Shown: positions 1 through 9,129 of the stretch, one piece after another
Layout: each line of letters opens with the position of its first letter
Position numbering within the stretch: the first letter of the stretch is position 1
Source: a virus
Taxonomy: Duplodnaviria; Heunggongvirae; Uroviricota; Caudoviricetes
Strand: one strand, 5' to 3'
Virus record (IMG/VR): IMGVR_UViG_2617270976_000006
DNA length: 9,129 nucleotides
The notes under the pieces: model-generated
Told to the model about the DNA's origin: nothing
The model's input: the letters and a program-made list of their open reading frames with translations, nothing else
The model's database searches: none
Position numbers and translations under genes: made by a program

Positions 1-2333
1 CCCAGCTCAACGATTGTGCGTACATCGCGATCGTTGTAGTAACGCCACGGGCAGGGGATCCCCTGCCGTTCGTATGAACGGCGCAAAATCGTGTTGTCGA
101 AGTTGGCTCCATTTCCCCAGACCTGAACAAAAAATTCACCGGAGTTTTCGTCGATAAATTCCCGCAATTGTAACAGTGCATCATCTAACGGGATTTCATC
201 GGTCATAATGGCAGATTGCGCTTCGCGTGATTGCTTAAGCCACCATTTAATGGTGTCCCGATCAATGACTCCGCCAGCAGTTTCCAGATCGATAGTCTTA
301 CTAAATTCCGGTCCCATATCTCCGGTTTGCGGATCGAAAAATATTGCACCTATTGAGATGATCGGGGCATCAGGATTTTTTCCCATGGTTTCAAGGTCGA
401 TCATTAGATGGTCACACGTCCTGCTGGTGGATGTGATTTCGTGATGACCGTTCACCTTAATTGGGTGATCTGCCGTCTCGCCAGTTTCATTATCGCTATT
501 GTGATGCTGATTGCCGCCAGTGTTCTCCTTGTGTGGATGTTCAGCGCCTTCCATTTCCTCCGGATCATCTTCCTGAACTTCAACCTGATACTCTTCATCG
601 AATGTTTCTTGGTATGTTGCGTCGCCCATCACCGCGCCACAATCAGGGCAGTTGCCGCCGCCGGTCTGACCGCAGGCGGTGCAGACTTTTTCCACTTCCT
701 GTTGCGCTACTGGTTCAGGCTGTTTCGTTTCTGGCTCGTTTTGTAACGCATTTGGACTGTTTTGTTCCGCTTTTTGGTAGTTCCGTTCCGATTCATGCTG
801 GTTCTGGTTCACAGAATCGCGGGTCTGGAGCCCCTTAACCCATTTCGGATCATTCGGGTCACTAATCCCTTCAACAAATTCACCACGTGATGCAGCAAGC
901 AACTTATCGGCGTCAGGCTGGCTGATATTGGCTGCCTGCATAATTTTGTTTACTTCGTCAGCGGTAACTTTTATCGGCTCTGGTTGTTCTGAATCTTCAG
1001 CGGTATCTACATTTTGCGGTAAGCCCGTGTATGTGCCATTTTTTCGGGCAAAATATTCTTCTTTTGTGATTTCAGTGGCGCCAGCAGCCAGTGCCTTATC
1101 CAGACCAGAGAGTTTGTTTGCGCGACCGTATTTTTCTCCGTCCTTATCTGCGAAGAGGAAATAGAACGGCCCCTCACGCTCTACAGATGGTTCAGCTTCC
1201 GGCGCGGTTTCATTTTTTGGGATATCAGATACCTCAGTTTCCACTGCATCAGTTTGTGTTTCTGATGACTGGAGAACATCAACAGTGCCCAGGTCTGTTT
1301 CTTCATTCTCAAACACGCCCTTTGTCGTCAGGTATTCGCAGATATATTTGTTCAGTGCTACGGGATCTTTGTGAATGTCGATCGGACGCTCACGGACAAG
1401 GCCAAAAATAGTTTGGCGGTCGTAGCGAAGGGCATCAGGCTGTTTGCGCATTGATGCCGAGATACGCTTCCAGTCTTCGCGGTCGTTGTCGATAACTTCT
1501 TTTTTTGCCCAGCGATGGATGCTGCCGTCAATGTTTCCGGCATCCACATCACTAGGCCAGAGAGCGTAGGCCAGTTCGTCATCCAGTGTTTTCCATGTCT
1601 GCTTGTATTCGCGATGAATGGCAGCAATGACCGGGCTGATTTTTCCTGTTGAATTTTCAGTGTACTGTTGATTGGCTCTGGCGCGGGCGAGATCAACAAC
1701 AGACGTGTATTTTCCGGTTTCCTTGCGTTCACCTTCGCGACGTTTTTTCCAGATGCGCATCTCTGCCTGAATTTCGGGCCATTTAGCACCAGGAATACAT
1801 TTATGCTTAACCCACCCAATGGCGTGCAACTTAAGCTCCGGATACATGGCGTTAACTTCTGGCATTTTCATCAACGCTTCAACGATATGTCCGTCGAATG
1901 TTGCCATGTCTTCCTGCAACAATTCCTGTGCGCTAATAACCATATCAACGGTGATGTTTTCACATGTGTCGAACTTAACCATGACAGCGTTCTGTACTTC
2001 AGGGGCCAGCTTGTCAAAAGTGACGTTCATCGGATCGGATTCAGTCTCAACCGGGACAAAAGAAGCAGACTCCTCATCCCAGCGGTTTTCCTGCATATAT
2101 TCAGCATCCCATGAATCGAGGGCAGGGCGGGGTATGCCAGGTTTATCCTCGCAGACAATAAATTTATAAGCGCAGTCCTGAGCAGCCGGATAATGTTCCA
2201 GGAATTGCCAGTGAAATTTTGCTCGAGCACGGCGTTCGTCGCCAGCTTCAATGGCTGTGGCTACAGCCACAGCGCCTTCTTCCCTTGTTGCCAGTTCGTC
2301 AGGAATAGCGGCGCAAATAAAGACTTTACTCAT
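1..2333 (-). CDS. ydfE: Large early-operon prophage protein (YdfE-like) with C-terminal DEDDh-type 3'-5' exonuclease motifs; C-terminus lies beyond the window start (partial)
   Basis: Manual minus-strand translation from ATG at 2333..2331 (MSKVFICAAIPDELATREEG...) stays stop-free in one frame to position 3, at least 777 codons. GAGG Shine-Dalgarno lies 10 nt upstream. Absent from the ORF track only because it has no in-window stop. Near the window start it shows Exo I (HLMIDLETMG) and Exo II (GNGANFDNTIL) motifs; mid-protein has CTACGQTGGGNCPDCG and acidic low-complexity linkers. Name is by position after ydfD and recollection, not verified. Confidence 0.85.
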   Translation of the reverse strand, partial: MSKVFICAAIPDELATREEGAVAVATAIEAGDERRARAKFHWQFLEHYPAAQDCAYKFIVCEDKPGIPRPALDSWDAEYMQENRWDEESASFVPVETESDPMNVTFDKLAPEVQNAVMVKFDTCENITVDMVISAQELLQEDMATFDGHIVEALMKMPEVNAMYPELKLHAIGWVKHKCIPGAKWPEIQAEMRIWKKRREGERKETGKYTSVVDLARARANQQYTENSTGKISPVIAAIHREYKQTWKTLDDELAYALWPSDVDAGNIDGSIHRWAKKEVIDNDREDWKRISASMRKQPDALRYDRQTIFGLVRERPIDIHKDPVALNKYICEYLTTKGVFENEETDLGTVDVLQSSETQTDAVETEVSDIPKNETAPEAEPSVEREGPFYFLFADKDGEKYGRANKLSGLDKALAAGATEITKEEYFARKNGTYTGLPQNVDTAEDSEQPEPIKVTADEVNKIMQAANISQPDADKLLAASRGEFVEGISDPNDPKWVKGLQTRDSVNQNQHESERNYQKAEQNSPNALQNEPETKQPEPVAQQEVEKVCTACGQTGGGNCPDCGAVMGDATYQETFDEEYQVEVQEDDPEEMEGAEHPHKENTGGNQHHNSDNETGETADHPIKVNGHHEITSTSRTCDHLMIDLETMGKNPDAPIISIGAIFFDPQTGDMGPEFSKTIDLETAGGVIDRDTIKWWLKQSREAQSAIMTDEIPLDDALLQLREFIDENSGEFFVQVWGNGANFDNTILRRSYERQGIPCPWRYYNDRDVRTIVEL

Positions 2334-2425
2334 TTGTTTTAACCTCATGACAGATTTAAGGATGAACAAATCCCTGCCATTGCTGGCATATAAGAATGAA
2401 ACCGGATATTTATTACGGAACTGTT

Positions 2426-2617
2426 TTAAAGACCTGCCGGGATTTCGATATTATCCTGGTGAATAACTTTATCGACCGGGTAACAGTTACCGGGAATTTT
2501 CTGTTCGGTTGCTGCAGTCATACACTCCTGCATTGTCCTGTGAACACTGACTGCAATATCAACTGGCTCTCCGGAAACAAGAAAAACTGTCAGAACAAGC
2601 ACAAATGCTGAATTCAT
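2426..2617 (-). CDS. ydfD: YdfD, small prophage lysis protein with N-terminal hydrophobic segment (63 aa)
   Basis: Translation MNSAFVLVLTVFLVSGEPVDIAV...IEIPAGL matches remembered YdfD. Its ATG (2617..2615) overlaps the dicB stop TGA (2616..2614) as ATGA, suggesting translational coupling. The track ORF 2426..2671 is a longer in-frame ATG extension that I reject. Confidence 0.8.
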   Translation of the reverse strand: MNSAFVLVLTVFLVSGEPVDIAVSVHRTMQECMTAATEQKIPGNCYPVDKVIHQDNIEIPAGL

Positions 2618-2802
2618 TGTGCACATCCTTTTGGCATCAGACGTAAACGAGCCAGCATTGAAACAATGCATATTTTATTTAATAGCTCCCGTTCTTGTTT
2701 TCTCTTGTTAATGGCATCTTCAGTAAATACTGGGTTACTGATAGTGACACCAATTTCAAAACAACCTTCAGACGTATTAACGTTTGGTAATAACGTTTTC
2801 AT
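2614..2802 (-). CDS. dicB: DicB, cell-division inhibitor (62 aa)
   Basis: Translation MKTLLPNVNTSEGCFEIGVTISNPVFTEDAINKRKQERELLNKICIVSMLARLRLMPKGCAQ. GAGGA Shine-Dalgarno 6-7 nt upstream of the ATG at 2802. The track ORF 2614..2961 contains it as the C-terminal 62 codons. Confidence 0.9.
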   Translation of the reverse strand: MKTLLPNVNTSEGCFEIGVTISNPVFTEDAINKRKQERELLNKICIVSMLARLRLMPKGCAQ

Positions 2803-2932
2803 TATCGCGTCCTCAACAATGAATTTTGTGATGCAGTGCCTGGTGCCTCCAGGTGACGTTAACCAGTTAACAATTAACGCCGGATAGCGGAACTGTTTGC
2901 TGAGAACACCGTGCGGTGTGTTGATGCAAACA

Positions 2933-2961
2933 AGATTAGCCATGACTAACATATCGGTCAA
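2933..2961 (-). promoter_or_regulatory. Candidate dicB operon promoter (PL analogue): -35 TTGACC (2961..2956), 17-nt spacer, -10 TAATCT (2938..2933)
   Basis: Read directly on the minus strand. Sits just downstream of the dicA stop and upstream of dicB, with an operator-like palindrome in the spacer. The -10 is only 3/6 to consensus. Confidence 0.4.
2936..2949. promoter_or_regulatory. Operator-like palindrome O3, TTAGCCATGACTAA (TTAG-N6-CTAA), overlapping the dicB promoter spacer and -10
   Basis: Same half-site architecture as the two palindromes in the dicA-dicC intergenic region; 12/14 identical to the reverse complement of O2. Confidence 0.45.
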
Positions 2962-3000
2962 GTGATTTTGTATGCTATAGCTAACATAATTGATGTGGTA

Positions 3001-3035
3001 AAAGATAACTCATTGATGATGTTATCTTTTATTTG
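3001..3035. terminator. Hairpin at the dicA 3' end: AAAGATAAC / GTTATCTTT arms (9 bp), 11-nt loop, T-rich flank on the plus strand
   Basis: Perfect 9-bp inverted repeat at 3001..3009 and 3021..3029, enclosing the dicA stop codon. The AU-rich stem makes it a weak terminator; it could instead be a protein-binding site. Confidence 0.3.
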
Positions 3036-3429
3036 TCCGCTGACGGGCTTTTAGTAATTCTTCAAAGAGTTTATTGAAGTTTTTTACTCGAGCTCGCATT
3101 TCGGCGAGCTGGGTATCCTGTTCTGATTCTGGCAGTGCATTAAACAGCTCAAGGAGCTCTAGTTCTTTGGGGGATAAGGCAACTGGCTTCTCAACAGGTG
3201 GTGTTGGTTGCTTGTCTTCATCGCCAAATAGAATCCATGTTGGTGAGCATTGCAATACTTTGCTGAGGGCAAAAAGGTTCTTCCCTGTAGGTTCACTATC
3301 ACCCCGTTCCCATTGTGATACAGACACATGGGAGATTTTCAGGGCTTTAGCAAGAGACCTTTGGGTGTGTTTGAGGTTTTTCCGACGATACCTGATGCGT
3401 TCGCCGATAGTTAAATTTTTTGTTTCCAT
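3022..3429 (-). CDS. dicA: DicA, cI/C2-like HTH repressor of the dicB operon (135 aa)
   Basis: Track ORF translation METKNLTIGERIRYRRKNLKHTQRSLAKALKISHVSVSQWERG... matches remembered DicA. Divergent from dicC. No clear Shine-Dalgarno upstream. Confidence 0.95.
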   Translation of the reverse strand: METKNLTIGERIRYRRKNLKHTQRSLAKALKISHVSVSQWERGDSEPTGKNLFALSKVLQCSPTWILFGDEDKQPTPPVEKPVALSPKELELLELFNALPESEQDTQLAEMRARVKNFNKLFEELLKARQRTNKR

Positions 3430-3431
3430 AG

Positions 3432-3445
3432 TTAGCTAATGCTAA
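3432..3445. promoter_or_regulatory. Operator-like palindrome O1, TTAGCTAATGCTAA, immediately upstream of the dicA start
   Basis: TTAG-N6-CTAA inverted repeat in the dicA-dicC intergenic region. Confidence 0.45.
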
Positions 3446-3451
3446 ATCGTA

Positions 3452-3480
3452 TTGACTATGTTTTTGTTAACATCTATCTT
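3452..3480 (+). promoter_or_regulatory. dicC promoter (PR analogue): -35 TTGACT (3452..3457), 17-nt spacer, -10 TATCTT (3475..3480)
   Basis: Sigma70-like hexamers with ideal spacing, about 33 nt upstream of the dicC ATG. AAGGTG Shine-Dalgarno at 3501..3506. Confidence 0.55.
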
Positions 3481-3498
3481 GTTAGTTATGACTAACAA
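3479..3498. promoter_or_regulatory. Operator-like palindrome O2, TTGTTAGTTATGACTAACAA (7-bp arms), overlapping the dicC -10 and start site
   Basis: Perfect 7-bp inverted arms around a 6-bp spacer; core TTAG-N6-CTAA shared with O1 and O3. Confidence 0.5.
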
Positions 3499-3512
3499 TA
3501 AAGGTGTTTTAA

Positions 3513-3743
3513 ATGCTTAAAACTGACGCTCTTTTGTATTTCGGTTCAAAAACAAAACTTGCACAAGCAGCAGGTATTCGTTTGGCTTCGCTTTATAGCT
3601 GGAAAGGGGATTTAGTTCCCGAAGGTCGCGCGATGCGTCTACAGGAGGCATCTGGCGGGGAGCTTCAGTATGATCCCAAAGTTTATGATGAATATCGTAA
3701 GACGAAGCGGGCGGGGCGGTTGAACAATGAAAATCACTCCTGA
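3513..3743 (+). CDS. dicC: DicC, Cro-like regulator (76 aa)
   Basis: Track ORF translation MLKTDALLYFGSKTKLAQAAGIRLASLYSWKGDLVPEGRAMRLQEASGGELQYDPKVYDEYRKTKRAGRLNNENHS matches remembered DicC. Confidence 0.95.
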   Translation: MLKTDALLYFGSKTKLAQAAGIRLASLYSWKGDLVPEGRAMRLQEASGGELQYDPKVYDEYRKTKRAGRLNNENHS

Positions 3744-4038
3744 ACAGGCTCGTGAGGCTCTGGATGCCTGGATATGTCGACCAGGAATGACACAGGAGCA
3801 GGCGACGATATTAATCACTGAAGCATTCTGGGCTTTGAAAGAGCGCCCGAACATCGATGTTCAGCGTGTCACATATGAAGGTGGCGCGATTGATCAGCGA
3901 GCGCTTGGCGTTAATCGAGTGAAGATATTTGAACGCTGGAAGGCTATCGACACCAGGGATAAGCGTGAAAAGTTCACGGCGCTAGTGCCTGCAATTATGG
4001 AGGCTATCAGAAATGATACAAAGATAATATGTCTTTAA
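3727..4038 (+). CDS. Hypothetical prophage protein downstream of dicC, in the positional slot of ydfX (103 aa)
   Basis: Track ORF overlapping the dicC 3' end by 17 nt; weak ribosome-binding site; no domain recognised. An internal Met at codon 21 (3787) is an alternative start. Confidence 0.55.
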   Translation: MKITPEQAREALDAWICRPGMTQEQATILITEAFWALKERPNIDVQRVTYEGGAIDQRALGVNRVKIFERWKAIDTRDKREKFTALVPAIMEAIRNDTKIICL

Positions 4039-4060
4039 AGAAAAGGCTGATGGCGAAAAG

Positions 4061-4077
4061 TGGCCCGATGAGGGCCA
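4061..4077 (-). terminator. Candidate flxA terminator hairpin, TGGCCC-GATGA-GGGCCA, followed on the minus strand by CTTTTCGCC
   Basis: GC-rich 6-bp stem between the convergent stops of the ydfX-like ORF (4038) and flxA (4093); partial U-tract only on the flxA strand. Confidence 0.3.
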
Positions 4078-4092
4078 CAATACGGCTGTCAC

Positions 4093-4425
4093 TTAGACGT
4101 AAATATCAATGGTGCCAGCGGTATTTGTATCGTCTTTTTTCTCTTCTTTTTTATCAGGCTGAACTGTCGCGTCTTCATTCTTTTTCTCTGCCTGCTGCCT
4201 TAACAACTGCTCCAGTTGAGCCCAGAGGCTTTCAATTTGCTTCTGTACCAATGCAGCCATTTCTTTTTTCTGCTGTGTCGTCATCCCCTCTTCCGATGAG
4301 ATTTTCCCAAGCTTTTCAGTCAGCACCTGAATTTGTCTTGTGATTTTGGCTATTTCTGATGTTCCTTCCGGGGCGGAGTTGTTTGAAATAACGGTTGAGG
4401 TATTTCCCTGAATTGTGACAGACAT
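4093..4425 (-). CDS. flxA: FlxA, FliA-regulated protein (110 aa)
   Basis: Track ORF translation MSVTIQGNTSTVISNNSAPEGTSEIAKITRQIQVLTEKLGK... matches remembered FlxA. AAGGAG Shine-Dalgarno 7 nt upstream. Confidence 0.95.
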   Translation of the reverse strand: MSVTIQGNTSTVISNNSAPEGTSEIAKITRQIQVLTEKLGKISSEEGMTTQQKKEMAALVQKQIESLWAQLEQLLRQQAEKKNEDATVQPDKKEEKKDDTNTAGTIDIYV

Positions 4426-4448
4426 AGATTTCTCCTTTTAAAAAAGCA

Positions 4449-4475
4449 CTATCGGCATGCACAAAAAAATCTTTA
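4449..4475 (-). promoter_or_regulatory. Sigma28 (FliA) promoter of flxA: TAAAGATT, 11-nt spacer, GCCGATAG
   Basis: Minus strand reads TAAAGATTTTTTTGTGCATGCCGATAG, a near-perfect match to the class III flagellar consensus TAAAGTTT-N11-GCCGATAA, about 25 nt upstream of the flxA ribosome-binding site. Confidence 0.75.
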
Positions 4476-4556
4476 ATCGTATTTCTTGTGTCATTAATTG
4501 TTTGATGTTCAGATTGTTTTCCTCGCGGGCTGGCGCGCCTCAGAAAGTAAAGCTTG

Positions 4557-4584
4557 TTGACAGGGGTAAACGTTCGGCAATAAT
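4557..4584 (+). promoter_or_regulatory. Orphan sigma70-like promoter: -35 TTGACA (4557..4562), 16-nt spacer, -10 AATAAT (4579..4584)
   Basis: Consensus -35 and 5/6 -10, reading toward relB about 370 nt away and antisense to ydfV. Followed by the palindrome CCGCATGCGG (4591..4600). Confidence 0.3.
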
Positions 4585-4627
4585 TTTCTGCCGCATGCGG
4601 GTGTTGCATAAAACGTGTTACGTTCCT

Positions 4628-4933
4628 TTATCGACAGGTCAGGTCACCGCTCACCCGCCGACGAGAAAGCAACACTGACATGCTAAAGCAAAAAATAGAT
4701 GAATAAGTTGAGTTGTGCATATGTAGCCTGACCGTCACAAAGTATATGGTGTCTGTACCAGTAAGATGATGGCCGGACTCTTTAAAAACGAGCTGACCTG
4801 CACAATACAGGATGGACTTAGCAATGGCTGCTCCTGGCACAAAGCGGACAGTGATCACCGTTCTTACGACTACTTTCTGACTTCCTTCGTGACTTGCCCT
4901 AAGCATGTTGTAGTGCGATACTTGTAATGACAT
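4628..4933 (-). CDS. ydfV: ydfV-position ORF (101 aa), doubtful as a real protein
   Basis: Track ORF of the length I recall for ydfV. It has no Shine-Dalgarno, and its start codon lies inside the relBE operator and promoter. Confidence 0.3.
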   Translation of the reverse strand: MSLQVSHYNMLRASHEGSQKVVVRTVITVRFVPGAAIAKSILYCAGQLVFKESGHHLTGTDTIYFVTVRLHMHNSTYSSIFCFSMSVLLSRRRVSGDLTCR

Positions 4934-4945
4934 TTGTAATTACAA
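4894..4945 (+). promoter_or_regulatory. relBE promoter (-35 TTGCCC 4894..4899, 17-nt spacer, -10 GATACT 4917..4922) and relO operator (TTGTAAT direct repeats; 12-bp palindrome TTGTAATTACAA at 4934..4945)
   Basis: Hexamers and repeats read directly, immediately upstream of the relB ribosome-binding site AGAGGTG. Matches the known RelB/RelBE autoregulatory operator architecture. Confidence 0.7.
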
Positions 4946-4957
4946 GAGGTGTAAGAC

Positions 4958-5197
4958 ATGGGTAGCATTAACCTGCGTATTGACGATGAACTTAAAGCGC
5001 GTTCTTACGCCGCGCTTGAAAAAATGGGTGTAACTCCTTCTGAAGCGCTTCGTCTCATGCTCGAGTATATCGCTGACAATGAACGCTTGCCGTTCAAACA
5101 GACACTCCTGAGTGATGAAGATGCTGAACTTGTGGAGATAGTGAAAGAACGGCTTCGTAATCCTAAGCCAGTACGTGTGACGCTGGATGAACTCTGA
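4958..5197 (+). CDS. relB: RelB antitoxin (79 aa)
   Basis: Translation MGSINLRIDDELKARSYAALEKMGVTPSEALRLMLEYIADNERLPFKQTLLSDEDAELVEIVKERLRNPKPVRVTLDEL. Its TGA stop overlaps the relE ATG. Confidence 0.97.
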   Translation: MGSINLRIDDELKARSYAALEKMGVTPSEALRLMLEYIADNERLPFKQTLLSDEDAELVEIVKERLRNPKPVRVTLDEL

Positions 5198-5484
5198 TGG
5201 CGTATTTTCTGGATTTTGACGAGCGGGCACTAAAGGAATGGCGAAAGCTGGGCTCGACGGTACGTGAACAGTTGAAAAAGAAGCTGGTTGAAGTACTTGA
5301 GTCACCCCGGATTGAAGCAAACAAGCTCCGTGGTATGCCTGATTGTTACAAGATTAAGCTCCGGTCTTCAGGCTATCGCCTTGTATACCAGGTTATAGAC
5401 GAGAAAGTTGTCGTTTTCGTGATTTCTGTTGGGAAAAGAGAACGCTCGGAAGTATATAGCGAGGCGGTCAAACGCATTCTCTGA
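5197..5484 (+). CDS. relE: RelE toxin, ribosome-dependent mRNA endonuclease (95 aa)
   Basis: Translation MAYFLDFDERALKEWRKLGSTVREQLKKKLVEVLESPRIEANKLRGMPDCYKIKLRSSGYRLVYQVIDEKVVVFVISVGKRERSEVYSEAVKRIL. Confidence 0.97.
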   Translation: MAYFLDFDERALKEWRKLGSTVREQLKKKLVEVLESPRIEANKLRGMPDCYKIKLRSSGYRLVYQVIDEKVVVFVISVGKRERSEVYSEAVKRIL

Positions 5485-5555
5485 ACCAAAGCATGACATC
5501 TCTGTCTCGCACCGAAGGTGACACTTCTGCTTTGCGTTGACAGGAGAAGCAGGCT

Positions 5556-5711
5556 ATGAAGCAGCAAAAGGCGATGTTAATCGCCCTGATCGTCATCTGT
5601 TTAACCGTCATAGTGACGGCACTGGTAACGAGGAAAGACCTCTGCGAGGTACGAATCCGAACCGGCCAGACGGAGGTCGCTGTCTTCACAGCTTACGAAC
5701 CTGAGGAGTAA
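5556..5711 (+). CDS. hokD: HokD (RelF), Hok-family small membrane toxin (51 aa)
   Basis: Manual translation MKQQKAMLIALIVICLTVIVTALVTRKDLCEVRIRTGQTEVAVFTAYEPEE. AGGAG Shine-Dalgarno 9 nt upstream. Too short for the ORF track. Confidence 0.9.
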   Translation: MKQQKAMLIALIVICLTVIVTALVTRKDLCEVRIRTGQTEVAVFTAYEPEE

Positions 5712-5779
5712 GAGACCCGGCGGGGGAGAAATCCCTCGCCACCTCTGATGTGGCAGGCATCCTCAACGCACCCGCACTT

Positions 5780-5810
5780 AACCCGCTTCGGCGGGTTTTT
5801 GTTTTTATTT
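5780..5810 (+). terminator. Intrinsic terminator of the relBE-hokD operon: 7-bp stem AACCCGC/GCGGGTT with UUCG tetraloop, then TTTTGTTTTTATTTT
   Basis: Hairpin and U-tract read directly, about 70 nt after the hokD stop. Confidence 0.8.
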
Positions 5811-5927
5811 TCAACGCGTTTGAAGTTCTGGACGGTGCCGGAATAGAATCAAAAATACTTAAGTAGCGCGCAGGGATAAGAGGGATGGTCCCTTAAAGGG
5901 GAGAGCTAATTATCCGGAAGGATTCTG

Positions 5928-6179
5928 ATGATGAACATCGAAGAACTGCGTAAAATTTTTTGTGAAGATGGCCTCTATGCTGTGTGCGTTGAAAATGGAA
6001 ATCTTGTTAGTCATTACCGCATTATGTGTTTGCGAAAGAATGGGGCTGCGTTAATTAATTTTGTGGATGCTCGGGTCACGGACGGATTTATCTTGCGCGA
6101 AGGTGAGTTTGTCACTTCATTACAGGCATTGAAAGAGATCGGAATAAAAGCTGGCTTTTCTGCTTTTTCAGGAGAATAA
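5928..6179 (+). CDS. rem: Rem, small prophage protein of unknown function (83 aa)
   Basis: Track ORF translation MMNIEELRKIFCEDGLYAVCVENGNLVSHYRIMCLRKNGAALINFVDARVTDGFILREGEFVTSLQALKEIGIKAGFSAFSGE. GGAAGGA ribosome-binding site 5 nt upstream. A possible promoter (TTGAAG, 18 nt, TAGAAT) lies at 5820..5849. Confidence 0.85.
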   Translation: MMNIEELRKIFCEDGLYAVCVENGNLVSHYRIMCLRKNGAALINFVDARVTDGFILREGEFVTSLQALKEIGIKAGFSAFSGE

Positions 6180-6245
6180 ACTCATCTACAATCTTGCGCG
6201 GGGCTGAACTCCCGCTGAGTAACACCGTGCCACCGGAGAAAACCG

Positions 6246-6524
6246 ATGGCACGCAACGCAAAATATTACAATTCTGATAATTCGCCCGTTCTTGCCTGCA
6301 CGCACGGGCGGTATTCTCACGCATTCAAGTCTGAATGGTTCCAGCACCCTCCATGCACTGCAGAACAGGCCGAATGGCTGATTCATTCTTACCGCAGGCG
6401 CGGGTTCGAGGTTAAGAAAGCTCTCAGTCTCGACTATCGGCACTGGATAATCTCTGTCAGGCTGCCTTATTCCGAACGCCCACCACGTGCGTCCCGCACT
6501 TTCCAGCAACGGATCTGGAGGTAA
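6246..6524 (+). CDS. Hypothetical basic protein (92 aa), immediately upstream of and probably coupled to ydfU
   Basis: Track ORF with GGAG ribosome-binding site 6 nt upstream. Its TAA stop (6522..6524) lies inside the GGAGGT Shine-Dalgarno of the ydfU GTG start (6526). No family recognised. Confidence 0.5.
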   Translation: MARNAKYYNSDNSPVLACTHGRYSHAFKSEWFQHPPCTAEQAEWLIHSYRRRGFEVKKALSLDYRHWIISVRLPYSERPPRASRTFQQRIWR

Positions 6525-6525
6525 C

Positions 6526-7575
6526 GTGCGGGTATTACTTAGACCTGTTCTGGTGCCTGAGCTTGGGCTGGTGGTCCTTAAGCCGGGCCGTGAATCCATA
6601 CAGATATTTCATAATCCTCGAGTGCTGGTGGAACTGGAACCAGAAAGCATGCGTAATCTGCCATCCGGAGTCGTTCCTGCCGTTCGCCAGCCGCTGGCGG
6701 AAGACAAAACATTGCTGCCGTTTTTTAGTAACGAACGGGTGATTCGTGCTGCTGGCGGCGTTGGCGCATTGTCCGACTGGCTATTACGTCATGTTACATC
6801 CTGCCAGTGGCCTAATGGCGATTACCATCACACTGAAACAGTCATTCACCGTTATGGTACCGGCGCAATGGTGTTGTGCTGGCACTGCGACAACCAACTG
6901 CGTGACCAGACATCGGAATCACTGGAGCTGCTTGCTCAACAAAATCTGACAGCATGGGTGATTGACGTCATCCGTCACGCAATAAGCGGTACGCAGGAGC
7001 GGGAATTATCTTTGGCTGAATTATCCTGGTGGGCGGTCTGCAATCAGGTGGTGGATGCACTACCTGAGGCTGTATCGCGTCGTTCGCTGGGATTACCAGC
7101 GGAAAAAATCTGCTCGGTGTACCGCGAAAGCGACATCGTACCGGGAGAGCAGACCGCCACCAGCATATTGAAACAACGCACAAAAAATCTTGCACCGTTG
7201 CCTTACGCCCACCAGCAACAAAAATCACCACAGGAAAAGACGGTGGTAAGCATCACCGTTGATCCAGAGTCTCCGGAATCTTTCATGAAGCTGCCTAAAC
7301 GTCGCCGCTGGGTTAAGGAGAAATACACACGTTGGGTTAAGACACAGCCGTGTGCTTGCTGCGGTATGCCAGCCGACGATCCGCATCATCTGATTGGTCA
7401 CGGGCAGGGCGGAATGGGAACAAAAGCACATGATCTCTTTGTGTTGCCTTTGTGCAGAAAGCATCACAACGAGCTGCATACGGATACAGTGGCATTTGAA
7501 GATAAGTATGGCTCCCAACTGGAGCTGATATTTCGTTTTATCGATCGCGCGCTGGCAATTGGCGTACTGGCGTAA
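6526..7575 (+). CDS. ydfU: YdfU, DUF968-type prophage protein with C-terminal Cys/His HNH-like motif (349 aa from the GTG start)
   Basis: Long track ORF 6487..7575. I prefer the GTG at 6526, which has a strong GGAGGT Shine-Dalgarno 4-5 nt upstream and gives the 349-aa length I recall. C-terminus reads PCACCGMPADDPHHLIGHGQGGMGTKAHDLFVLPLCRKHHNELH. Confidence 0.8.
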   Translation: MRVLLRPVLVPELGLVVLKPGRESIQIFHNPRVLVELEPESMRNLPSGVVPAVRQPLAEDKTLLPFFSNERVIRAAGGVGALSDWLLRHVTSCQWPNGDYHHTETVIHRYGTGAMVLCWHCDNQLRDQTSESLELLAQQNLTAWVIDVIRHAISGTQERELSLAELSWWAVCNQVVDALPEAVSRRSLGLPAEKICSVYRESDIVPGEQTATSILKQRTKNLAPLPYAHQQQKSPQEKTVVSITVDPESPESFMKLPKRRRWVKEKYTRWVKTQPCACCGMPADDPHHLIGHGQGGMGTKAHDLFVLPLCRKHHNELHTDTVAFEDKYGSQLELIFRFIDRALAIGVLA

Positions 7576-7588
7576 GTGGAGAACGAGC

Positions 7589-8341
7589 ATGAACCTTGAA
7601 GCCTTACCAAAATATTACTCCCCAAAATCTCCAAAATTGAGCGATGACGCTCCAGCGACAGGCACCGGTTGTTTAACAATTACGGATGTAATGGCAGCGC
7701 AGGGGATGGTGCAGTCGAAAGCACCACTTGGGTTGGCCTTATTTCTGGCAAAAGTTGGTGTTCAGGACCCTCAGTTTGCGATTGAAGGCCTGCTAAATTA
7801 CGCGATGGCACTGGATAACCCGACATTGAACAAATTGAGTGAAGAAATCCGGTTACAGATTATTCCTTACCTCGTGAGTTTTGCCTTTGCTGATTACTCC
7901 AGGTCTGCGGCAAGTAAGGCTCGCTGTGAGCATTGTTCAGGTACGGGATTTTATAATGTATTGCGCGAAGTGGTGAAACACTACAGACGCGGGGAATCTG
8001 TAATCAAGGAAGAATGGGTGAAGGAACTATGTCAGCATTGCCATGGTAAGGGCGAAGCCAGCACAGCGTGCAGAGGGTGTAAGGGTAAAGGGATTGTTCT
8101 GGATGAAAAAAGAACCCGGTTTCATGGCGTACCGGTATATAAGATTTGTGGGCGTTGTAATGGAAACCGGTTTAGTCGTTTACCGACCACGCTGGCACGA
8201 CGTCATGTCCAGAAGCTGGTACCAGACCTGACCGATTATCAGTGGTATAAGGGGTATGCGGACGTCATTGGTAAACTGGTAACAAAGTGCTGGCAGGAAG
8301 AAGCATACGCGGAAGCGCAATTGAGGAAGGTGACGAGATAA
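7589..8341 (+). CDS. quuQ: QuuQ, Q-like late-gene antiterminator (250 aa) with multiple CxxC zinc-binding motifs
   Basis: Translation MNLEALPKYYSPKSPKLSDDAPATGTG...AQLRKVTR. GGAG Shine-Dalgarno before the ATG at 7589. The track start at 7559 would overlap ydfU. Motifs CEHCSGTG, CQHCHGKG, CRGCKGKG and CGRCNG are present. Confidence 0.9.
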   Translation: MNLEALPKYYSPKSPKLSDDAPATGTGCLTITDVMAAQGMVQSKAPLGLALFLAKVGVQDPQFAIEGLLNYAMALDNPTLNKLSEEIRLQIIPYLVSFAFADYSRSAASKARCEHCSGTGFYNVLREVVKHYRRGESVIKEEWVKELCQHCHGKGEASTACRGCKGKGIVLDEKRTRFHGVPVYKICGRCNGNRFSRLPTTLARRHVQKLVPDLTDYQWYKGYADVIGKLVTKCWQEEAYAEAQLRKVTR

Positions 8342-8372
8342 ATGATTTTTGCTGAAGATGGCGACATGATGT

Positions 8373-8401
8373 TTGCATTTTTCAAAAAATATGGATAAAA
8401 T
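8373..8401 (+). promoter_or_regulatory. Candidate late promoter (PR' analogue, probable QuuQ target): -35 TTGCAT (8373..8378), 17-nt spacer, -10 TAAAAT (8396..8401)
   Basis: Good sigma70 hexamers about 30 nt after the quuQ stop, followed about 50 nt later by an intrinsic terminator. This is the lambdoid PR'/tR' arrangement. Confidence 0.45.
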
Positions 8402-8446
8402 TTTTTCAACGATGGGCTTTGTATACCCGACGTTAAGAAAAAGTAG

Positions 8447-8477
8447 AAAACCCGCTGATGAGCGGGTTTTGTGCTTT
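8447..8477 (+). terminator. Intrinsic terminator (tR' analogue): 10-bp stem AAAACCCGCT/AGCGGGTTTT, GATG loop, then GTGCTTT
   Basis: Hairpin read directly; the A-tract before and T-tract after suggest it could act in both directions. Confidence 0.6.
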
Positions 8478-8615
8478 AAATGGGGCAATGGTAATGTTGA
8501 ATCTCATCCCGGGACTCATGTCTGTTAACTTATTATTTAGCTGGTGACTTGGTTATTTGCCTGATGTTTAAAATGTTTTCTTCCAGTACAATGTCCCTAA
8601 ACACAATGAGTCTGC

Positions 8616-8638
8616 GGTAATGACTCCAACTTATTGAT
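8616..8638. repeat. IS1 terminal inverted repeat (insB-proximal end)
   Basis: GGTAATGACTCCAACTTATTGAT at the junction with prophage DNA. Confidence 0.85.
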
Positions 8639-9008
8639 AGTGTTTTATGTTCAGATAATGCCCGATGACTTTGTCATGCAGCTCCACCGATTTTGAGAAC
8701 GACAGCGACTTCCGTCCCAGCCGTGCCAGGTGCTGCCTCAGATTCAGGTTATGCCGCTCAATTCGCTGCGTATATCGCTTGCTGATTACGTGCAGCTTTC
8801 CCTTCAGGCGGGATTCATACAGCGGCCAGCCATCCGTCATCCATATCACCACGTCAAAGGGTGACAGCAGGCTCATAAGACGCCCCAGCGTCGCCATAGT
8901 GCGTTCACCGAATACGTGCGCAACAACCGTCTTCCGGAGACTGTCATACGCGTAAAACAGCCAGCGCTGGCGCGATTTAGCCCCGACATAGCCCCACTGT
9001 TCGTCCAT
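8631..9008 (-). CDS. insB: IS1 transposase InsB frame (normally expressed as an InsAB' frameshift fusion); ATG-delimited part shown
   Basis: Track ORF translation [125 protein letters not shown]. Confidence 0.9.
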
Positions 9009-9052
9009 TTCCGCGCAGACGATGACGTCACTGCCCGGCTGTATGCGCGAGG

Positions 9053-9127
9053 TTACCGACTGCGGCCTGAGTTTTTTAAGTGACGTAAAATCGTGTTGAG
9101 GCCAACGCCCATAATGCGGGCTGTTGC
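9053..9127 (-). CDS. insA: IS1 InsA, 3' fragment (N-terminus beyond the window end)
   Basis: Manual minus-strand translation [24 protein letters not shown] then stop at 9055..9053, matching the InsA C-terminus. Confidence 0.85.
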
Positions 9128-9129
9128 CC

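Follow-up and report, generated by a model that had tools for sequence, protein, structure and literature searches.

A Qin-type dicB operon without ydfABC and dicF

The E. coli prophage segment held in IMG/VR virus record IMGVR_UViG_2617270976_000006 raises the question of whether the dicB operon of Qin-type prophages occurs in nature without its promoter-proximal ydfA, ydfB and ydfC genes and without DicF, a small RNA (sRNA), and how such an operon would have arisen. The window, by which we mean the whole 9,129-nt stretch analysed here and to which all coordinates refer unless another record is named, is the entire draft contig JNQT01000087.1 of assembly GCA_000704325.1 and represents a segment of a Qin-type cryptic prophage, with the operon genes on the minus strand. 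It holds a natural Qin-type dicB operon that lacks ydfA-ydfB-ydfC-dicF. We consider it likely, with a probability of about 85%, that the interval derives by deletion from a Qin dicBF operon of the K-12 type and would act as a DicA-repressed unit making DicB and YdfD without DicF. The operon and the adjoining immunity region comprise the following features.

1..2333, minus strand: ydfE-type 3'-5' exonuclease gene (778-aa gene call; PF27430, PF27432, PF16473), running past the contig end
2426..2617, minus strand: ydfD, lysis protein, DUF1482, 63 aa; protein identical to K-12 YdfD
2614..2802, minus strand: dicB, cell-division inhibitor, 62 aa (PF05358); protein and DNA identical to K-12
2803..2886, minus strand: dicB-proximal leader, 84 nt, 100% identical to K-12 (L003 9526..9609)
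2886..2887, unstranded: deletion junction, reading on the minus strand ...CAGTTCCGC / TATCCGGCG...; its right side is the recurrent breakpoint
2887..2932, minus strand: retained start of the ydfA leader, 3' of dicBp, within the K-12 match 2874..4009
2933..2961, minus strand: putative dicBp promoter, read from the sequence
2934..2986, minus strand: two DicA operator-like sites (repeat families D1, D2, I2)
3022..3429, minus strand: dicA, repressor of dicBp, 135 aa; protein identical to K-12 DicA
3479..3498, unstranded: Oc operator between dicA and dicC; exact minus-strand match to the published Oc
3513..3743, plus strand: dicC, Cro-like, 76 aa (PF14549); identical to K-12

The distance between dicA and dicB is 219 bp (2803..3021; dicA stops with TAA at 3024..3022, and dicB starts with ATG at 2802..2800), as an earlier reading of the letters alone (the sequence-only reading) had given it, compared with 1,267 bp in K-12, where dicB lies at 1649609..1649797 and ydfD at 1649794..1649985. 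The K-12 gene order that this reading had stated, dicA-ydfA-ydfB-ydfC-dicF-dicB-ydfD-ydfE on one strand, is that of the annotation. Its claim that ydfA, ydfB and ydfC are absent was borne out by blastn, in which the K-12 segment L003 8492..9525 had no counterpart in the window. Likewise, DicF, which it had thought missing, was not found by a covariance search with RF00039 (membership threshold 48 bits) on both strands of the whole window, which returned no match at E<=10; as positive controls, K-12, strain G1/2 and strain LR-03 scored 76.7 bits each. Divergent DicF-like RNAs are known in other prophages, and a hidden or divergent DicF in the window was ruled out because the full Rfam scan at E<=10 gave none.

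Two further claims stood in part. The ATGA overlap of dicB and ydfD is present (2617..2614), but it is not special to this element, as K-12 has an equal 4-nt overlap. The description as a minimal dicB-ydfD operon is apt in that ydfABC-dicF is lost, but a ydfE-type exonuclease gene also follows; this is the last gene of the dicB unit and, unlike in K-12, it is uninterrupted by IS2. Its called length varies among carriers of the same junction (585 aa in L005 6850..8607 vs 823 aa in L008 418..2889).

Among the features of a Qin-type operon, the window has the DicA/DicC immunity region adjoining upstream, a dicBp region with operator-like sites, and the dicB-ydfD overlap followed by ydfE; it lacks the promoter-proximal ydfA, ydfB and ydfC and a dicF upstream of dicB. 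The DicA, DicB, YdfD and DicC proteins are all identical to their K-12 counterparts. The locus resembles the K-12 Qin dicBF operon in belonging to the same prophage at the same chromosomal site by rspB (seen in L005), and in its immunity and promoter regions, dicB, ydfD and ydfE. It differs in having lost 1,034 bp with ydfABC, dicF and half of the spacer between dicF and dicB, and in the ydfE left uncut by IS2. Among the natural forms of this well-known operon it is a new one.

The 1,034-bp deletion and its junction

Alignment to K-12, which the sequence-only reading had proposed as a check, showed that the interval differs from K-12 by a deletion and is not plain K-12 sequence. The window and K-12 share three collinear blocks.

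Window 1567..2886 = L003 10845..9526: 100% identity, up to the K-12 IS2 boundary
Window 2874..4009 = L003 8491..7355: 99.56% identity
Window 4004..8615 = L003 6827..2216: 99.91% identity

The four mismatches and one gap of the second block come from the 13-nt junction overlap (2874..2886), plus one base in dicA. Between the first two blocks a clean 1,034 bp is lost relative to K-12 (NC_000913 1648491..1649524; L003 8492..9525, by blastn and alignment). This segment held ydfA, ydfB, ydfC, dicF with its terminator hairpin, and 90 nt after dicF, and it included the 5' half of the structured spacer between dicF and dicB.

On the minus strand the junction reads ...CTCAGCAAACAGTTCCGC / TATCCGGCGTTAATTG..., where the left parent in K-12 continues after the breakpoint with TACCCCAGCGTTAAGG. 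In some Qin alleles the left parent continues instead with TACCCGGCGTTAAGG (undeleted L105), which agrees at 12 of 13 bases with the right parent TATCCGGCGTTAA. The near-repeat partners are therefore the ydfA leader, TACCCCAGCGTTAA in K-12 and TACCCGGCGTTAA in some alleles, and TATCCGGCGTTAA upstream of dicB. The 12/13 match points to two short near-repeats as the sites of the deletion, with a shared TA as the point of switching: the 1,034-bp loss would have arisen by joining of the ydfA leader to the dicB upstream region, with the crossover at the common TA.

The lineage also has a second private deletion, in which 527 bp of the K-12 sequence are missing; it removed ydfW and the end of ydfX and created a 103-aa fusion open reading frame (ORF). 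At its junction (4004..4009) the flanking K-12 matches overlap by 6 bp.

Distribution of the allele

The contiguous junction was present in 0 of 5,426 complete E. coli genomes, where the seven best records match in two separated pieces, and in no GTDB species representative. It was recovered solely by an exact-sequence look-up of the 103-aa fusion protein, which gave 11 contigs. L005, L006, L008 and L009 share the identical 41-nt junction with the window, and L012 has it at its end; six independent contigs carry it in all. Their sources include a second NCBI assembly, Logan runs and several gut metagenome assemblies from ENA, and a carrier besides GCA_000704325.1 is GCA_958319605.1. L005 is a 135-kb scaffold in which the prophage adjoins rspA-rspB. 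None of the junction-bearing contigs had a DicF match by RF00039, and the junction and the 527-bp deletion co-occur in every contig found. The allele is real and rare, marks one lineage and is linked to the 527-bp deletion. L005 retains an intact integrase and excisionase.

These contigs bear on whether the junction was created by draft assembly. The window is a short draft contig of 9,129 nt that ends in IS1, as a misjoined contig might, but the recovery of the same 41-nt junction from separate NCBI, ENA and Logan samples, one of them the 135-kb scaffold, makes the chance of an artefact practically negligible.

A related allele was present in three complete genomes (G1/2, G6/7 and G8), in which another deletion has brought dicA and dicB to 390 bp, ydfABC is lost and dicF is kept (76.7 bits). 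It shares with the window a Qin-type operon without ydfABC and a shortened dicA-dicB spacing; it differs in keeping dicF and in having its breakpoint in the -10 element, whereas the window lacks dicF and has the -10 intact. In the G1/2-type allele (L002 6400..6812) the left breakpoint turns the -10 TAATCT into TAATCC, probably making the promoter weaker, and the right breakpoint lies ~74 nt upstream of dicF. With its breakpoints elsewhere, this event is independent of the window deletion.

Many IMG/VR dicB loci (such as L033, L119, L126, L111 and L089) carry DicF-like RNAs ~100-260 nt upstream of the breakpoint. These have the same terminator stem and a different 5' (seed) part, were missed by blast with K-12 DicF, and look like seed-swapped DicF variants.

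The structured dicF-dicB spacer and the direction of change

The deletion cuts a structured element. The 185-nt K-12 spacer from the DicF terminator to dicB folds far better than shuffled controls (z = -4.5), and K-12 L003 9447..9587 aligns to STnc100 (RF02076) with 34.1 bits (E 4e-6 in a 256-nt search), under the gathering score of 47. The same element is found in a P1-like plasmid (L241 1858..1969; 35.7 bits, also under 47), beside tRNA genes and upstream of a 43-aa ORF. In the RF02076 alignment the K-12 spacer and the P1-like segment share a closing stem and three hairpins over model positions 21-154 of 206. The window itself scored 18.8 bits (E 1.3), below 47, because only the 3' half of the spacer is kept. 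STnc100 is a prophage-borne sRNA family related to PasD (bioRxiv 10.64898/2026.05.13.724894). By its score, the K-12 spacer is best described as a sub-threshold relative of STnc100, not a filed member of the STnc100/PasD family. The STnc100-like element may serve small toxic phage genes as a common leader.

The spacer also speaks to the direction of change. Were the short form ancestral, the ydfABC-dicF segment of K-12 would be a later insertion, or moron cassette, and the variation among prophages in the sequence left of the breakpoint would be in keeping with this. Against it, the junction cuts the conserved structured element, whose 5' half is present in K-12-type prophages and P1-like plasmids. 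Moreover, DicF or a DicF-like RNA lies upstream in 103 of 124 sampled dicB loci by blast, and in most of the others on inspection. In other alleles that share this right end the left ends fall within genes, which marks them clearly as deletions; the window lineage bears its second private deletion as well. We regard an ancestral short form as very improbable and read the allele as a deletion, an ordinary decay allele of an E. coli cryptic prophage.

The retained promoter and expected expression

We next consider what the deletion left of the control region. A putative dicBp can be read from the sequence, with a -35 element TTGACC (2961..2956), a 17-nt spacer and a -10 element TAATCT (2938..2933). 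One operator-like site, TGTTAGTCATGGCTAATC (2951..2934), lies over the promoter spacer and the -10, and a second, TGTTAGCTATAGCATACA, lies at 2986..2969; repeat families D1, D2 and I2 tie both to the dicA/dicC operator. The experimentally tested DicA operator Oc is TTGTTAGTCATAACTAACAA (PMC3441716), and window 3479..3498 is an exact copy of it on the minus strand. The stretch 2887..3021 matches K-12, the few mismatches of its block being accounted for elsewhere.

In K-12, dicBp lies between dicA and ydfA and is the sole promoter found in the operon; deletion of dicA gives 22-fold derepression, Rem relieves the repression by DicA, and the promoter switches on spontaneously and under stress (PMC10448788). 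The main K-12 operon transcript is a 1,146-nt ydfABC-dicF species, and a longer species containing dicB accumulates only when RNase E is inactivated (PMC10448788). The dominance of the 1,146-nt species agrees with a picture in which most transcripts stop at dicF or are processed near it.

In the window, transcription would start at about 2925-2927, judged by spacing to the -10. Its leader, ~125 nt long, would consist of ~40 nt of former ydfA leader followed by the 84 nt found before dicB in K-12, with a GAGGA ribosome-binding site, and would lead directly into dicB-ydfD-ydfE. DicA would keep this unit silent, Rem or spontaneous switching could induce it, and on derepression it would yield DicB and YdfD and no DicF. 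With the DicF terminator, at which most K-12 transcripts reportedly stop, and all DicF processing sites gone, more dicB message would probably be made per initiation. From the retained promoter and operators we infer that production of DicB and YdfD without DicF is the most likely outcome; the use of the promoter, its repression and the expression level of the allele are predicted in the same way.

Several points weigh against this expectation. The -10 matches the consensus at 3 of 6 bases, and a consensus promoter scan did not call dicBp. The new dicB leader has no significant predicted fold (z = -1.5), and the conserved STnc100-like leader, now without its 5' half, could reduce dicB expression instead of raising it. 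Furthermore, other prophages in the carrier genome could hold dicF, as many E. coli are multicopy in this respect, with a median of 2 places per genome.

The deletion could also be a neutral product of decay, with dicB silent or poorly expressed from its truncated leader and nothing changed for the cell. In favour of this, Qin is a cryptic prophage in decay, a second deletion and an IS1 insertion occur in this lineage, and many alleles with the same breakpoint (below) lack dicA and the promoter, yet persist in 187 genomes. In contrast, the promoter, operators, repressor, antirepressor and coding sequences of the window are all intact and identical to K-12, and K-12 dicBp comes on spontaneously and under stress (PMC10448788). 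We therefore think neutral decay rather unlikely, and favour an operon that would still be under DicA control and able to make DicB and YdfD.

A recurrent deletion endpoint upstream of dicB

The junction raised a further question, that of why the deletion ends where it does. Window 2886/2887 corresponds to K-12 NC_000913 1649524/1649525, 84 nt upstream of dicB, and this position is, to the base, the endpoint of at least 14 unrelated deletion alleles. Loci with the shared endpoint are L014, L015, L031, L049, L139, L145, L147, L152, L195, L207, L226, L229, L234 and L239. The left partners were counted by scanning IMG/VR and metagenomes for the right-hand block without its usual flank, which gave at least 14 distinct partners; these lie inside ydaT, a DUF977 gene, replication-region genes, ydfU, a tail-fibre-like ORF and others. 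All of these deletions run leftward, toward dicA. The complete genomes AST46 and MB19 carry unrelated larger deletions of dicC, dicA and dicF that end just left of TATCCGGCG. An allele joining ydaT' to dicB is contiguous in 187 of the 5,426 complete genomes. Of 120 IMG/VR loci sampled without bias, just two lacked a DicF-like RNA, and both bear the shared breakpoint.

The left parents have a sequence in common at the join. TA directly follows the breakpoint in 13 of 13 left parents that could be traced to undeleted alleles. Compared with TATCC, these have C at +4 in 10/13 and C at +5 in 9/13, while T at +3 is found in only 3/13. Rightward deletions from the shared site were not found in IMG/VR, with one exact K-12-type left flank as query, or in a spread sample of complete genomes, in a search that was narrower and non-exhaustive. 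Small indel alleles also adjoin the site, for example the loss of 6 nt (TCTCTG) in 68 loci, and these could reflect relaxed constraint, the site being a loop of the predicted RNA structure. The breakpoint lies inside the STnc100-like spacer, and the local stem there is short, though the spacer as a whole folds with z = -4.5.

In this light the window deletion need not have been a random slip between near-repeats. A site-specific process (replication arrest, nick or break) at CTG^TATCC might have driven it, with the free end then rejoined to sites offering TA (N) CC microhomology. The meeting of at least 14 unrelated left partners with one right end, the TA in every traced left parent with C at +4 in most, the abundance of one such allele among complete genomes, and the failure of the narrower search to find rightward deletions from the site all speak for such a process. 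On the other side, the att core of Qin is unlike the site, the likeness to dif and Ter is weak in a comparison by eye, and the search for rightward deletions was limited to one exact left-flank sequence. We hold a site-specific origin of the window deletion to be a tentative explanation, with a chance not quite even.

One end is constant and its partners vary, a terminal match of 2 nt is obligatory and goes with further partial homology, and there is a single direction; together these traits point to CTG^TATCC as the place where a DNA end is defined, which would then be joined to sites upstream through microhomology. The broader proposal, which is more doubtful, is that the TA 84 nt upstream of dicB, in a loop of the STnc100-like element, could be a site-specific polar deletion initiator in Qin-like prophages. 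An arrest, nick or break would leave a DNA end starting with TATCC, to be rejoined to TA(N)CC sites upstream. Such an end could come from an arrested nascent strand or from a site-specific nick or break, and a recombinase that acts at pseudo-sites would also fit.

Known systems were compared with the site. Recombination by the prophage integrase at a secondary site was rejected, as the Qin att core GAAATCCATAA, present at both prophage ends, has no meaningful similarity to CTCTGTATCCGGCG. For Tus-Ter, the Ter core GTTGTAAC would need a 1-nt insertion at the site, and for XerCD-dif 15 of 28 positions match, in both cases by eye against the consensus. A Pin/Hin-type invertase site, an integron core, a REP element, and common insertion sequence (IS) targets or ends gave no convincing fit, and no IS end adjoined the site in any allele seen. 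Bierne, Ehrlich and Michel reportedly described in 1991 deletion hot spots at replication arrest sites (terB). The alleles described here resemble such hot spots in that one endpoint is fixed while the partners vary, the homology at the junctions is short, and the events are polar; they differ in that the Tus-binding Ter core is absent from the recurrent site.

Other features of the window

Beyond dicC, the window continues with the following genes.

3727..4038, plus strand: 103-aa YdaT-like fusion ORF
4093..4425, minus strand: flxA
4628..4933, minus strand: ydfV
4958..5197, plus strand: relB
5197..5484, plus strand: relE
5556..5711, plus strand: hokD
5928..6179, plus strand: rem, antirepressor (PF27490; function from PMC10448788)
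6526..7575, plus strand: ydfU
7589..8341, plus strand: ydfT
8631..9129, minus strand: IS1 transposase fragment

IS1 sequence at 8615..9129 directly follows ydfT and closes the contig; the IS1 of LR-03 is 66 bp off, as if the two had been inserted separately or a neighbouring deletion had occurred. A perfect 11-bp inverted repeat, TAAAAGATAAC / GTTATCTTTTA, extends across the stop codon of dicA (2999..3031) with no T tract behind it. Just 3' of hokD, a weak isrK-like match on the plus strand (5720..5801; 25.1 bits, E 0.038, gathering score 50) is probably a terminator-like hairpin. This match and those to rsmX, Leu_leader and other Rfam families in the window are far under threshold and were taken as terminator-like chance matches.

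Implications

DicB blocks cell division through MinC and ZipA and inhibits phage receptors. The allele offers a small natural experiment, a DicA-controlled toxin operon minus its sRNA, the terminator of that sRNA and three unknown genes, with native regulation kept. Carriers could show whether DicB alone suffices for the benefit that keeps the operon in E. coli, and whether the DicF terminator normally limits dicB expression. Balasubramanian et al. (2016) engineered dicF and dicB deletions in an intact, Plac-driven dicBF operon (PMC5069750). The engineered dicF deletion likewise gives DicB in its operon context without DicF, an outcome only expected for the window; it differs in that the construct has ydfABC, a foreign promoter and an FRT scar, whereas the natural allele keeps DicA control. 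The sequence-only reading had proposed the locus as a means of separating DicB and DicF phenotypes. It is a natural variant of that kind, but its practical value is modest because the engineered deletions exist (PMC5069750) and other dicF copies may share the genome.

The most interesting result is the common deletion endpoint, which lay outside the claim of that reading. If the polar initiator is real, it would explain why no fewer than 14 independent alleles, the DicF-less operon of the window among them, have a single endpoint in common to the base. E. coli prophages would then lose DicF and the immunity region by way of a specific DNA site and not at random. If deletions in this prophage family repeatedly start at one nucleotide, its decay is not random, and the site would be a tractable model for endpoint choice in illegitimate recombination in natural genomes.

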